A DNA stretch of 64,000 nt, from the NCBI GenBank assembly GCA_010015585.1, contig ML975160.1; one strand, written 5' to 3'. This DNA is from Eremomyces bilateralis CBS 781.70 (lineage: Eukaryota). Shown here piece by piece: positions 44,877-50,883 of the stretch (its first letter is position 1; each line of letters opens with the position of its first letter). The notes below the pieces were generated by a model. It saw nothing but the letters and a program-made list of their open reading frames with translations, had not been told where the DNA came from and made no database searches. Both the position numbers and the translations under genes were made by a program.

Positions 44877-45401
44877 ATGGTTTATCATGGTTCATCGAGA
44901 TCATTGCAGATTTCATGGGATGCGTTGTGATATGGGTTTTGATCTTTCTCTCCACTCATACAAAACTAGAAAACATTTGGAAAACGGAAAACTACCAAAA
45001 AAAGATCGAGATTCAATCTCAAATAAAAATGGTTTCATGGGTATCATGGGTTAGCAGTCTTAGAAGACCATCGATACATAGAACATGGGAATATCAGAGA
45101 ATTGTGTATAAATCTGCTCGTACATCTCGTCTATATGTGCTTGCTGAGTGACGATAATTCATTAGGAACGTGACTACCGGAATTTCCTAGACTTTCCATG
45201 GGGTATGTCATACAGAGCTTCATCTACTCTTCTTACATTTTTAGGTGATCCAATAAACACTGGACATTCGCCTTCGATCAGCTCTGCTTCCCATATCCCA
45301 TTCGTTTCAACTTTCCAAACTCCCAACGGACAACCAGGGCACGCTCAGCGACCACCGGAAACAAGCCTACACCACGGCCGACATCCACATGCATCCACAC
45401 C

Positions 45402-48400
45402 TCATCCGCCCAGCCCAGCACCCACCTCAATCCCCCTCTCCACTGCCACCCGCACCCGCTCCCTCGCCACCTGGTTCCCACACTCCACCTCCAAATTCTC
45501 AAGCCACACCTTCGCCGCGTGTCCGCCGACCGTGATCTCGATGCCCGGCACGGGGATGCCAAGCGCATGGAGCCGTTGGAGCTCGTGTTTCTCCTCCGGG
45601 GAAATGGAGAGGGGGTCAGTGTCGGGGGATGGGGGGGGTTTGGAGGGTGGGGTTTCGGTGGAGGGGGAGGGGGGGAGGCGGGGACGGGCGATCGGGGTGA
45701 TTGCGGAGGAACCGAATTGGGATTCGAGGAGGAGGAGAAGGCGGGAGAGGCGGGTGGAGGAGGAGGTCGGTGTAGATGGTTGGGATGTCGAGGTCGGCGC
45801 GTGGGAATGGGAATGGGCCTGAGAGGAGTCTGTAGATATGTTAGCGTAGATTCGGATGCTTGAAACCTAGAAAAGCCACGACAAAACTAGCCTAGAATGG
45901 TGGACGATGGGATTGTTCGTGCAAGAGAAACTTACGCTTCACCGCGGCTGGGCTACTCTCCACCGTCAACAACACCCCCACAACTGCATCCGCGATCCCA
46001 TCATTGACCATATTCCCCTCCCACTCCACAACCACCTTCCCTTGCGGCCCACCACACTCCACCCGCACGCAATCCATCACTTCAAACACCGTCGTGCGCC
46101 CGACCTCCTCATCCGCGACCTCCATCGCCCCATTCCCATGAGCATCCTGCTCCTTCTTCTTCTCCGCCGCAAAGTCCGGCGTAACGATCTTGATCCCACC
46201 AAACGTCCCCTCCAGCGCCCAACGAATCAGCTCCACGCCCGCTGTCGGCAGTGCCATCTGCTGGCGGCAGGTGATCTGCGTCGTCGTGAGACCGGCGTAT
46301 TCGCGGAGGTCCTCCGGAGCCATCAAGCTCATTTTGAAGTCACTCTGGACCAACACCCCTGTGATCAACTGCGGCTGCGTTTGCTCCTCCGGCGCGACGT
46401 CTTTCATTTCTTCGTCCCCGGAGACGTCTTGCGGTCGGACAGTGATGGGTTGCGGCGCGGTGATCTGCGCGAGCTTGCCGACGACTTTGGCGAGCTTCTC
46501 GGTTTTGAAGGGGATGCGGAGGGCCTCGCAGTTGGGTGGGGAGAAGACTTTGATGGGGTTCTTGCGCTTGGAGTTGAGGCCGAGGAGCTTGGATTTGAAG
46601 CGTGTCATTTGGGATTTTTCGCCGTGGACCAGGATCTATTACGTAGTTAGCTTCGTGAGACTCTCTGTGACTGCATTGTTCATGACTTGGACTTACGACG
46701 ACAGACGGGTTGACCTCCTCTACGAACTCGCGGTTCTCGGCGCCATCAACGTGGGCCGCGAACGCAAATTCGTTGACGGTACAGCGCCGTGGAATCTGGA
46801 CCTGATCATGCTGTCCAGGCACCTTTCCTCTGCTCGCCGTCGCTGCGCCTCTCGTCATAATCGCGGGAATGAACTCCGGTTCGGTCATGATGATCTTTGC
46901 CATGGTCCCTTCAACACTGTAGCCGGTAATGACCACCCCATTCCTCTGATCCGGGGCCCACCGCTCCAGCAATTCTCGCGACACCCCACTCTGCATCATA
47001 CCAGGGCTTGCCAACATCACGCAGCTCCCAATATCGTCGAAGCGTTCTAGGCTCTTGAGACTTCGGATGTATCGGAAATCCCATGGGCCGGCTTTGGACA
47101 CCTCGCCTGTCGATTCGGCTTCCGCCATGCGTTCGCGGAAGAGCCGCTTGATGTTGTCGTTCATGGCGCTGATGTACGTTTGGTAGACGACCATGCATTT
47201 CCTCGCGAGGTTGCTGGCATAGTATATTGGGACCTTTTGGTACTCTGGATGCTTCCCCCAATACTCATCGAGGATGAGGAGCAGTTCTTGGGCGCGTCCC
47301 AAGGCAAATACCGGAAGGAGCGCTCGTCCTCCTCGGTTTAGGATGCCGGTGATGGTCTTCATGAGCATGTTCTCCCTCTCCACTCGCGGGACGTGGGTGG
47401 CAACACCGTATGTGCTCTCCGTGATTAATACGTCGACCTTGACGTTTTCTGGCGCTCTAGCGGAGATGAGATGTCGGTCCTCTTCCCGGGAGTAGTCGCC
47501 AGTGAATAGAATCTTGAGGCCGGCAATCTCGATGAGAAACATTGCAGCGCCCAAAACGTGCCCGGCCGGATAGGGGGTTATTCGAATCGAGGAAATAGTG
47601 TGTGTGGTGTAGTAATCGATGGCTTCGATCTGGGGGAAGGTAGAGAGGTGGTCGGCTTCGGTATAGAGTTGGATCTTCTGCTCGGCGGAGGACGAGACAT
47701 TCCTAGATGGTTGTTAGGTATGCAATATCCACACCGGAGGTGTACCCTACCCAACGCGAACGCTGTCTTGTATGAGCCATTTGTAGATGGCTTTGGTGGG
47801 ATGGGTCATGAAGACCCGACCTTTGAAGTTCGTCTTCGCAAGAACATAAGGGAGGGAAGCTGCATGGTCTATATGGAAGCTGGCAAGCGTCAGTCCTACT
47901 CCCCAGTGAGACGAAATATAGCAGTACGGCGAGGCTATCGGCATTCGACGAGACGTCACAGCATGGTAGCCATTAAAATGAACATGGTGCTTTCATTGTT
48001 TCTCATATACATGAAGCTGCTGTGTGGAATACATGAAACGGCTCCTGAATATCATGATCGTATTGCTGGAAGCAGAGGAAAAAGATGAAATGTAAGGATA
48101 TGAGTTGACAGTGAACAAAATCCGGACGCCCTTGCCAAATGCCGATGCCGTTCACCTCTAGTGCTCTAAACTTACTGGCTTATGAGTAGCACGTCAACTG
48201 TGCTCAAGTCATATTCGTCGTAGAAGGGGAGGGAAGAGATCCCTTCGTATGCGGGCGAAGTACCAGCATCCAACTTGAGGTATATCAGCGAACGAACCTT
48301 AGAATCATACACGGACGAGCTTACCATAACAGTCTTGCCTTTGTACCTGATGATGTGACATGATCTTCCCACTTCATTGCATCCTCCGAGACCGAAGAAC

Positions 48401-48462
48401 TCCAACTCATCAGCAGGGTCGACATCGTCATCTTCTGGAGAGAGTTTCCGTTTCGACGCCAT
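45402..48462 (-). CDS. YSH1: Pre-mRNA 3'-end endonuclease Ysh1/CPSF73 (metallo-beta-lactamase/beta-CASP)
   Basis: Introns 48324-48274, 48175-47880, 47750-47703, 46696-46636, 45935-45830. Motifs [58 protein letters not shown]. Confidence 0.95.
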
Positions 48463-48673
48463 CTTCAAATGCGACTCCTCATCCCAGTGATACGTTATCA
48501 GAAGAGTTGGAGAAGGAAGATTAGTACAAGGTGAGCAGCTTTGCTTCCTCTATTGAATCCACATGAGGGTTGAGAGCAAGGATGGAATTAAGGAATGAAT
48601 TGAAGAGGGTTAACTTGCATTCATCGGCGCAATGTTTGGATTGGAATATCTCAACGGATCGCGAAAGTTGATA

Positions 48674-48695
48674 GTCACATGATCGCAACACGTGA
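48674..48695. promoter_or_regulatory. E-box (Cbf1-like) motifs in the divergent YSH1/TAF4 promoter
   Basis: GTCACATGA (48674-48682) and CACGTGA (48689-48695). Confidence 0.4.
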
Positions 48696-49151
48696 GCTGA
48701 AGGCCCGTGCGGGATGGGGACGCGCCACAGCTCTCCATCTTTCCTTCTCCTCACTCTATCACATCACAATCATCGCGACATTCAGCCCTGTGCCAGTCCT
48801 CCAACAACCGTGAGCATCTCCGGAAGGGTTTCAAATACATGTATTGAAACCATAGCATGCCTCACTCTTGGTAAAGGAGAGAACAGTCTTCCGCCGTCCG
48901 GCGCTGCTGAGCAGCAACAACCTTCCAACCCGCCTCCACCTCCATCCACCTCGGACATCCCATCGTCATCTGCTACGAGCTCCTCCGCAGGAGATAACGA
49001 CTCCGGATCTCACTCACAGCGGCCGACCCCATACGCGTCTCCTTACGCGTCTCCTTGAACATCCCCTTGGTTCTCCTCAAGCAGCCCTTGTCCCCTCACC
49101 CCAGCGCAATTCGACGACCAATTCGACGACCGGCGGCAAGCTACTTCAAAC

Positions 49152-50883
49152 ATGATGGCTACTTCTATGATGTCCCCCGGCTCCATGCCTCCGCCTAACT
49201 CCGTGGGCCCTCCGAACCACATGCCCCCGCCGAATTCCATGCCTCCACCAGGCTCTATGCCACCCCCGCAACGACCAGCCGAGAAGACCGAGAAAGAGAA
49301 GCGATCGGCGACCGATATCAATGACCTCAGCGACATCGTCACGGCAGCGGGTGTTGACATCAGGGCCGAAGAGGCCGCCTTGGCACAGACGTATCGCAGC
49401 GCATCGGATTTGGCCTCGCAACAAATAAATGGCTCGTTCGTCTCCAATTCTCAGTCCACGGCCAGCTTCTCGCCAAACCAGAGCTTCGGGTATCCACAAG
49501 GCAGCTTTACTAGTTATCCACCATTTCCAGCATCTGGAGCTGCCAGCCAGTCCCCGGTTGCGCCGAAGACGGTTGAAGAGGAGCTCTTTGAGAAGCACAA
49601 GAAGGCGGCGCGGGATCATGCCGAGCGGAAACAGTTTCACCTCAACAACCCCTTCTTAAGTACCAACTGCTTGCGCCAGAAGCTGGACAAACACACTCGG
49701 AGCAACGGGGTTCGGCTGAATGTGGATGGTCTTTACGACCAATCTCCTCAGACGCCACAAGGGGTCAACGCGATGCGGATGACTGGAAGGGACGGCATGG
49801 GATTCGTGGCGGCGAAGGCGAGCTCGGTCGTTGAACACAATGCCGCGTTTGCGGACGTTCTCGCGCTTGTTTCACTGGCGGCGAACGAGCGATTACGTGG
49901 TCTGGTGGAAGATGCATATGCTCTTTCACGTGGACGACGAGTCGGGGCAGACGGGGTCGTACCCCCAGACTTTCAGGACCTGGCGACTGGGACGGGAGAT
50001 CCGAAACCGATTTCTGCCGTGCCACAGTCCATTACCAACTCGCCATGGGACATGCCACCAGACAGTGCCGTGTCCCCCATGACGGTTCCACAAAAGGGTC
50101 AGCGCGTTATGCCCAAATTATTGTCGCCATCTCGCTAATATCGTGAATTCAGACCCCCTAGATGCCTCCAACCGCCTTCCTACACCTCCGACTGAGCCTC
50201 CGTCAACACCCGTATCCACCCAATCCTATCCCCCAACCCTAGCCATCACACTCGACAGCATGTACGACCGCGATCTCGCCTATGAACAAGCACGCGTCGA
50301 AACGCGTCGGAAGCGCCGCAAACTCGCCGCCGAGACCGCCGCCTCGCAATCCGTTTCCGCCGCCGAGTCACCGGCCCCCGGCACCCCCTCATCGGCCGGC
50401 GGTCCCATCGACGGCAAAGCACCCGACCTGATCCCTCCCATGAAGATGACCAAGAAAGAGCGCGAGAAGCTGGCGAAGTCGTCCGCGACCGAAGAGGTGC
50501 AGCACCGCGCCGCGAACACGACGGCCTCGATGGCGCTGGGCGGGCTCGGAAAGAAGAAATACAGCTGGATGACATCCGGGACGCCGGTCACGAAACCGCT
50601 ACCGAACATGCGGGTGAATACTTCACTGTCGGGGAGCAAAAGCACGGGAGCGGCGGGTGGTGGGGCGCAGGGGCCGCCGCCAGTCGATCGGTTGCTGCAG
50701 GCGGTGCATCAGAAGAAGCTGGGGGAGTGGAAGGAGGACAGCGAGAAGGGGCGGGGCATTCAGTTGCGGGATTGGATCGCGGCGTTAGAAATGGACGGGC
50801 GGGAGAAGAAGGGAATGGTGAGGGCGGCGGTGAAGCGGAACTTCGATAAGCTCGAAGAACAGGATAATGGGCCGCGGAAGTAA
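49152..50883 (+). CDS. TAF4: TFIID subunit Taf4 (start codon uncertain)
   Basis: DINDLSDIVTAAGVDIRAEE, HLNNPFL, LVSLAANERLRGLVEDA, HRAANTTASMALGG..KKYSWM, GIQLRDWIAALEMD. Intron 50098-50152. Confidence 0.88.

Follow-up and report, generated by a model that had tools for sequence, protein, structure and literature searches.

The YSH1/CPSF73 gene and its second intron

The minus strand of the window analysed here, a 64-kb stretch of contig ML975160.1 from Eremomyces bilateralis CBS 781.70, carries a gene of six exons that is, as judged from its sequence, a YSH1/CPSF73 orthologue of the filamentous-fungus type, because its fourth exon matches the Pfam families Beta-Casp and Lactamase_B_6 and its fifth exon matches CPSF73-100_C. 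These domains, together with an HxHxDH motif at the joint of exons 2 and 3, mark the product as a core cleavage and polyadenylation factor. The gene has five introns of 51, 296, 48, 61 and 106 nucleotides (nt), and the second of these is the subject of this text. It divides the histidine codon (CA|C) of the metal-binding motif, which reads ..LLISH|FHIDH, and it holds near its centre a module that resembles a fungal polyadenylation signal (PAS) between the two arms of a predicted long-range helix (Table 1). An earlier sequence-only reading of this stretch had singled out the same intron for its length, compared with 48-106 nt for the other four, and for its place at SH|FHIDH, and on both counts the sequence agrees with it.

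Intron 2 occurs once in the window. The CTRAC block at its branch point is aligned across related introns (MAFFT), and a transcript read unspliced past exon 2 meets a stop codon immediately (CAG UAA). The earlier reading had also pointed to a repeated word, TTCATGTAT, which is indeed found twice in the intron, at 48037-48029 and 48015-48007, and nowhere else on the minus strand of the window. By our own arithmetic, however, chance would give about 0.17 repeated 9-mers in a stretch of 296 nt, and for this reason the repeat alone means little. What appears to go beyond chance in intron 2 is its kept length and one of its two UGUA sites with the A-rich stretch that follows. Thus the emphasis that had been placed on UGUA motifs was right in so far as a UGUA-containing element is conserved between lineages, but this conservation is seen for one of the two sites.

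Conserved length, central module and predicted helix

Related loci were collected by scanning metagenome contigs with exon 4, which yielded 66 fungal YSH1 loci (L001-L066) of 64-86% identity. For 57 of them the positions of the two flanking exons were found, and the remaining nine contigs end inside the locus. All 57 assessable loci possess an intron at the same split codon, with a length of 246-420 nt and GT..AG ends. The neighbouring introns behave differently, as intron 1 measures 48-76 nt or is absent (in 12 loci) and intron 3 is lost in at least 14 loci, in which exon 3 abuts exon 4. The flanking introns thus come and go, whereas intron 2 is retained, and long, in every assessable locus. 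Clustering at 90% amino acid identity sorts the 45 distinct introns that have a long match to exon 4 into 22 clusters, with a minimum of 60% and a median of 72% for the pairwise identity among clustered loci, and 37 representative introns were used for all counts of motifs, helices and acceptors given below. When 48 distinct introns were aligned globally with MAFFT, most of their sequence could not be matched up, except for the splice sites, the branch point, the central module and the helix arms.

The central module, 22 nt long in the window, is 77% identical between lineages, compared with 23-31%, the random level, in six flanking windows of the same size. Its first half is captured by the pattern GTA[CT]A[CT][CG]AGA, which is found once per intron in nine of the 37 representatives at a relative position of 0.38-0.56, and the 11 nt following this pattern, which lie outside of it, are still 68% identical between lineages. 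In these nine lineages the core reads (U)GUAYAYSAGA and then continues with a sequence like AAYCAAUGAAA. An unsupervised search with one occurrence per sequence and expectation maximization (OOPS-EM) over all 37 representatives returned a 24-nt motif of 15.2 bits, as against 9.3-10.1 bits in ten of ten shuffled sets, and placed it almost always at 0.4-0.55 of the intron length. A central UGUA with a published fungal PAS hexamer within 30 nt is present in 20 of the 37 introns (mean 1.0 and maximum 4 in 300 shuffles). A position weight matrix built from the nine lineages had its best match anywhere in the locus, over both strands and about 7 kb, in the intron centre in five of 28 held-out loci, the intron making up 2-10% of the search space, and in several further held-out loci the intron centre ranks second to eighth. 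An nhmmer search with the window's module alone gave weak matches only (best E-value 0.0021). By our own reading of these searches, the module is recognizable by hexamer or pattern in 18 of the 22 clusters, and the other four carry a variant core.

The composition of the module is that of a fungal PAS as described by two studies of poly(A) sites. In Aspergillus oryzae the stretch from 15 to 30 nt upstream of poly(A) sites is rich in A, no hexamer is more strongly over-represented at 10-30 nt upstream than AAUGAA, UGUAU and UGUAUAU belong to the leading upstream words, and cleavage takes place mostly at CA with U-rich flanks (PMC3111234). In Neurospora AAUGAA is likewise the most abundant PAS motif, AAUCAA and AAUAGA are named as further motifs, and the site falls in most cases between C and A (PMC5869017). 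The window shows these elements in the order UGUAUAU, 7 nt, AAUGAA, 5 nt, CA and then UGUUCAUUUUAAU, and the orthologous modules vary among AAUGAA, AAUAGA, AAUCAA, AAUAUA, AAUACA and AAUAAA, of which AAUCAA, AAUAGA, AAUACA and AAUAUA are all in the published fungal lists (PMC3111234, PMC5869017). As far as sequence can tell, a poly(A) signal appears to lie within an intron upstream of an essential domain.

The helix that encloses the module was sought by a Smith-Waterman search for pairing between the part of each intron upstream and the part downstream of the module, with 40 shuffles for comparison. In the window the helix comprises 37 pairs (z-score 8.4) and none of the 40 shuffles is as good; its duplex energy is -48.3 kcal/mol and the same helix is found in the minimum free energy fold. 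As the stability of the whole-intron fold is not unusual (z-score -1.11), the structural signal is predicted to be a specific long-range helix and not overall stability. Of the 37 introns, 18 possess a helix that none of the 40 shuffles equals (with z-scores of 18.9 in L047, 9.8 in L051, 7.7 in L036 and 6.3 in L014), and in about nine others one to five shuffles are as good. The arm sequences differ between lineages, with a GGCAG/CUGCC-like core common to many. In a clade of eight sequences a 17-pair helix has 97.1% of its cells paired, compared with 30-53% when the partner is slid, and in a group of three sequences nine of 36 predicted pairs are changed on both sides. An RNAalifold result for 11 sequences, in which the 5' arms of L047 and L055 are misaligned, was left out of these pair counts. 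In the window 10 nt separate the 5' splice site from the start of the helix, 30 nt separate the end of the helix from the branch-point A, and the complementary arms near these two sites pair better than chance, as is characteristic of the zipper stems discussed below. The module is separated from the 3' arm by 29 nt in the window and by 10-30 nt in several other introns.

A few further sequence features of these introns were noted in passing. The 3' arm often contains GUGAUGUG(C), as in L008, L014, L036, L001, L006 and L038, which resembles box C (RUGAUGA) without matching it and is at the wrong end for a C/D small nucleolar RNA (snoRNA). In the clade of L048 a second conserved block, GCATGC..GCATGGCAAAA, is located near the 5' end of the intron (columns 45-64 of alignment A1) and is predicted to form a small hairpin, and L047 and L055 possess CACCATGGCAGA at a similar place.

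RNA contigs and competing readings

RNA information was available as the contigs of one public run, placed on positions 45000-49200; the label of this run gave RNA as a guess. The contigs skip all five introns of the gene, with GT..AG ends on the gene strand (CT..AC as placed), and it follows that the run contains spliced RNA. One contig, record 3 in Table 1, crosses the 5' splice site of intron 2 unspliced and is colinear from exon 2 into the intron, without any mismatch, other letters or loose end. It stops at ..UGUAUAUGAGAAACAAUGAAAGCACC, at CACC|A, which is 6 nt past AAUGAA and directly before an A. The contig that represents the normal 3' end of YSH1 also stops behind such a hexamer, namely at 45140, 18 nt past another AAUGAA (45163-45158), and AATGAA occurs only 23 times on the minus strand of the window. 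No contig covers the intron part 47880-47985 or any other intron, and the depth bins there belong to the spliced contig, which makes this a weak hint. The mean depth, a single value for each contig, is 1788 for exons 1-2, 603 for the 5' part of the intron, 219 for the spliced contig, in which the final 30 nt of exon 2 are joined to exons 3-6, and 102 for the 3' untranslated region (UTR); these values are suggestive only, as contig depth cannot rank the parts of one gene. Most YSH1 transcription in this one sample may end at the intronic site.

Table 1. Features of the YSH1 locus, in positions of the window
Feature	Position	Strand	Remarks
YSH1/CPSF73-like coding region	45402..48462	minus	6 exons, 832 amino acids; ATG at 48462, stop ends at 45402
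Intron 2	47880..48175	minus	296 nt, GTAAGT..CTGAC..CAG; exon joint 47879/48176 in RNA contigs
PAS-like module UGUAUAUGAGAAACAAUGAAAG	47990..48011	minus	UGUA/UAUAUG-type upstream element and A-rich element; AAUGAA at 47997-47992
Predicted helix, 5' arm	48122..48165	minus	intron positions 11-54
Predicted helix, 3' arm	47920..47961	minus	intron positions 215-256
RNA contig record 3, 220 nt	47986..48205	minus	colinear; 30 nt from the end of exon 2, then the initial 190 nt of intron 2; ends ..AAAGCACC, next bases AUG
U-rich stretch UGUUCAUUUUAAU	47972..47984	minus	just downstream of the contig end; candidate downstream element, a role suggested by the fungal PAS layout
Branch-point consensus CUGAC	47889..47893	minus	9 nt upstream of the 3' splice-site AG (47881-47880)
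Second, upstream UGUA	48030..48033	minus	in the first TTCATGTAT copy; from sequence
Candidate internal acceptor CUUCCAG	48066..48072	minus	present in the sequence, unsupported as a splice site

With slightly better than even confidence, we read intron 2 as a conserved regulatory intron, in which cleavage and polyadenylation, competing with helix-assisted splicing, would generate a composite terminal exon, and through which the endonuclease would exert feedback on its own gene. The signal of yeast/fungal type, made up of the UGUAUAU upstream element, AAUGAA, CA and the U-rich stretch, would be displayed in the loop of the helix, whose arms would bring together the beginning of the intron, just past the 5' splice site, and the stretch immediately ahead of the branch point. 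As the gene is transcribed, the signal would emerge about 30 nt ahead of the helix's 3' arm and some 100 nt ahead of the branch point. If cleavage and polyadenylation came first, with the contig end as the presumed poly(A) site, the transcript would end about 190 nt into intron 2. In the resulting short RNA exons 1 and 2 would be spliced together, the 5' splice site of intron 2 would be unused and the stop codon (CAG UAA) would follow right after exon 2, so that this RNA could not encode the metal-binding site but only 78 residues of the beta-lactamase fold plus a glutamine. If instead the helix formed first, it would shorten the effective distance between the 5' splice site and the branch point from about 286 nt to about 40 nt, and the intron would be spliced out together with the signal. 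Because the gene encodes the cleavage endonuclease itself, such a competition would amount to a negative feedback on its own level, with higher cleavage activity leading to less full-length YSH1 mRNA.

Several observations weigh against this interpretation. The RNA evidence is a single run that consists of contigs only, and a contig stop in one study counts for less than a weak hint. Record 3 possesses 30 letters of exon 2 and not the 31 that a formal bridge requires, poly(A) letters are absent at its end (as they equally are at the normal 3' end), and this end, 6 nt from the end and 11 nt from the start of AAUGAA, is about as close to the hexamer as the published range of 10-30 nt allows. With GUAAGU, intron 2 has a consensus 5' splice site, whereas that of the CstF-77 intron, the closest model, is weak. 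The top match of the weight matrix is outside the intron centre in 23 of the 28 held-out loci, and an nhmmer search with the nine-lineage profile recovers the training loci but returned no significant held-out match (best E-value 0.45). Four of the 22 clusters (L047, L055, L058 and the L048 clade) carry the other core, UACAUAGC..YUGUAU, without a listed hexamer, and within the L048 clade this core shows no variation across some 25 nt. In about ten of the 37 introns (for example L001, L006, L010, L015 and L033) the helix does not surpass the shuffles, and in the clade of eight the covariation is thin, with one covarying pair and arms that are conserved rather than co-varying.

As an alternative, the intron could be subject to regulated or inefficient splicing without any polyadenylation, in which case the helix would be needed for splicing, the module would bind an RNA-binding protein (Hrp1-like, PUF-like at UGUAnAU, or another), the unspliced RNA would be unproductive and the end at 47986 would be a break in assembly or coverage. 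This is an unlikely explanation in our opinion. In its favour, the helix and the kept length fit a splicing enhancer of the zipper-stem type, the unspliced frame stops at CAG UAA, and contigs from one run are no proof of the 3' end of an RNA. The UGUAYAU form of the upstream word is also, as we take it, similar to PUF-type sites. However, the conserved part includes an A-rich block of exactly those hexamers that are published as fungal PAS, and it follows a UGUA/UAUAUG-type element; the contig stops at CA 6 nt past AAUGAA, much as the normal 3' end does 18 nt past its own AAUGAA; and the 3' part of the intron is in no contig, although the depth of the 5' part exceeds that of the spliced contig. 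We regard it as improbable that the intron is simply constitutive, with a helix that merely keeps a long intron spliceable and with central conservation and truncated contig due to neutral retention and noise. The spliced junction is present in the RNA contigs, as this would predict, but a neutral intron would not hold a length of 246-420 nt in 57 of 57 loci while its neighbours are lost, nor a 22-nt core at 77% amid flanks at the random level. Both explanations account less well for the PAS-like make-up of the core and for the position of the contig stop.

A long conserved helix with a conserved loop would also be expected if processing of the pre-mRNA yielded, from this intron, a stable and structured non-coding RNA or a hairpin that an RNase III-type enzyme cuts. 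This we consider very improbable, since no Rfam family reached its threshold in the window region (best E-value 0.89) or in 17 related loci (no matches), inspection by eye revealed no arrangement of C/D or H/ACA boxes, and record 3 carries 30 exon-2 letters at one end and terminates at the other within the loop, neither at the foot of the helix nor in its stem. An intron-hosted snoRNA was rejected on the same two grounds, the missing boxes (by eye) and the missing Rfam match. One sub-threshold Rfam match, to the U1A polyadenylation inhibition element, overlaps the module at 47954-48015 on the plus strand, opposite to the gene; with 16.8 bits as against a gathering threshold of 50 and an E-value of 2.1, it was taken as chance.

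The sequence-only reading had proposed a different route to a truncated mRNA, by which an internal 3' splice site at 48066 would create a poison or terminal exon that adds a tail of 25 residues and ends at an intronic poly(A) site. Its components are real: the tract TTTCATCTTTTTCCTCTGCTTCCAG ending in AG at 48067-48066 is present in the sequence, joining 48176 to 48065 does give an open frame with a 25-residue tail and a stop at 47995-47993, and a poly(A)-like signal lies downstream of the acceptor. We nevertheless rejected this exon and hold it to be the least credible of the explanations considered here. The joint 48176/48065 is missing among the five joints in the RNA contigs, although contigs can drop rare forms, and upstream of the AG there is no CTRAY branch-point consensus. 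The acceptor also finds no echo in the relatives, as a branch point, pyrimidine tract and AG upstream of the module are found in one of 37 related introns, compared with a mean of 5.6 (standard deviation 2.0) in 200 shuffles, and because of this difference internal acceptors, if anything, seem to be avoided and not conserved. The RNA that extends into the intron continues colinearly from exon 2, and its frame would stop directly at CAG UAA and not after a tail of 25 residues. The broader idea, truncation before the active site, persists as the best reading of the comparative data and the one RNA run, but in the form of a colinear composite exon and not of a spliced-in one.

The contigs also give some information about the surroundings of the gene. 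A low-depth contig ends at 45085 and continues with Illumina adapter letters, and the 3' UTR contig of YSH1 reaches to 45140, so that a distance of about 55 nt may separate the 3' end of YSH1 from that of a transcript arriving from the opposite side. On the other flank a divergent neighbour on the plus strand is represented by a 2347-nt RNA contig (depth 376) that runs from 48788 to 49200 and beyond, with a long open frame at 49059-50138 whose start is rich in Pro, Ser and Met. About 220 nt separate the start of this contig (48788) from the 5' contig end of YSH1 (48565), which suggests a shared promoter region. At 45754 a contig with 18 loose G letters beside a C-rich run of the last YSH1 exon is probably an artefact of sequencing or assembly.

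Known systems and biological meaning

Intronic polyadenylation in genes for 3'-processing factors is an already known kind of regulation, to which the enclosing helix of the YSH1 intron would possibly add a new twist. The closest relative is the CstF-77 gene (CSTF3) and its Drosophila counterpart su(f), which, like the gene described here, encodes a core factor of 3'-end processing and possesses a conserved poly(A) site in an early intron of conserved size (PMC3708835, PMC7614891). There the site gives rise to short mRNAs of non-coding appearance and is proposed to act as a sensor of cleavage and polyadenylation activity relative to splicing (PMC3708835, PMC7614891). Intron size and strength of the poly(A) site are both conserved in CstF-77, and use of the site responds to the CstF-77 level (PMC3708835). 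The YSH1 intron differs in that its gene encodes the endonuclease itself, in that it belongs to fungi, in its degenerate signal of the AAUGAA type and the placement of this signal in a helix loop, and in that the feedback is one that we infer. Also, the YSH1 intron is about 300 nt long instead of tens of kb, and its 5' splice site follows the consensus and is not weak.

In PCF11, with a PAS in intron 1, and in RBBP6, with its isoform 3, a 3'-processing factor likewise limits its own full-length mRNA by way of an early poly(A) site (PMC6458999, PMC6428223, PMC7614891, PMC11331416). These are vertebrate genes, and no helix is part of the accounts at hand. Moreover, RBBP6 isoform 3 is a functional competitor protein, whereas the short YSH1 RNA would give 78 residues and a glutamine.

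For the helix, the nearest parallel is found in the zipper stems of Saccharomyces cerevisiae introns such as that of RPL7B, where a segment that closely follows the 5' splice site is complementary to one that closely precedes the branch point and the two sites are thereby brought effectively nearer to each other, as they would be here. The RPL7B stem is a target of autoregulation too, but by inhibition of splicing through the gene's own protein, and the available description has no poly(A) signal in its loop. For the YSH1 helix, unlike the zipper stems, the part in splicing is our own reading.

The secretory/membrane switch of the IgM heavy chain uses a composite terminal exon. As in our proposal, a 5' splice site there competes with a poly(A) site just downstream, and the outcome is set by the level of a 3'-processing factor (CstF64; PMC7614891). 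That switch yields two functional proteins, however, and does not concern a processing-factor gene. The only alternative processing of a fungal YSH1 that we found in the literature is the use of alternative 3' splice sites in YSH1/SYC1 of Saccharomycotina (PMC7491326), which, as far as the account at hand extends, concerns a different intron that starts in the 5' UTR, leads via the distal acceptor to a Syc1-like C-terminal protein and does not involve polyadenylation (PMC7491326).

A search of the literature retrieved no intronic poly(A) site and no self-regulation for YSH1/CPSF73; this covers articles and not their supplements, and the Neurospora 2P-seq lists (PMC5869017) may hold such a site. 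Among the sources, the part at hand of PMC7614891 names only Pcf11, CstF77 and RBBP6 as self-regulated, with CPSF73/Ysh1 not among them, the words 'autoregulat' and 'feedback' do not occur in PMC11331416, and a 2025 review of fungal alternative polyadenylation contains neither 'intronic' nor 'autoregulat'.

Steady-state control of the cleavage and polyadenylation machinery is known for a few subunits, namely CstF-77, PCF11 and RBBP6, and not for the catalytic endonuclease. The 5' part of intron 2 seems to be transcribed into stable RNA, which calls for some caution in the annotation of such genes. As a compact and conserved element of about 300 nt, the intron would lend itself as a simple system in which to study how splicing and 3'-end processing compete and how RNA structure gates the use of poly(A) sites, and it could potentially serve as a portable sensor or attenuator in fungal expression systems. 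It is possible, although we put this forward with less than even confidence, that a structure-gated attenuator of the endonuclease gene operates across a wide range of filamentous ascomycetes, in which a poly(A) signal is displayed in the loop of a helix that forms co-transcriptionally, and each transcript is cleaved by the enzyme's own complex unless helix-assisted splicing rescues it. If this is true, the attenuator would represent the first case of an autoregulatory circuit acting on CPSF73/Ysh1 itself, with intron 2 as a built-in sensor of cellular cleavage activity relative to splicing and elongation speed.

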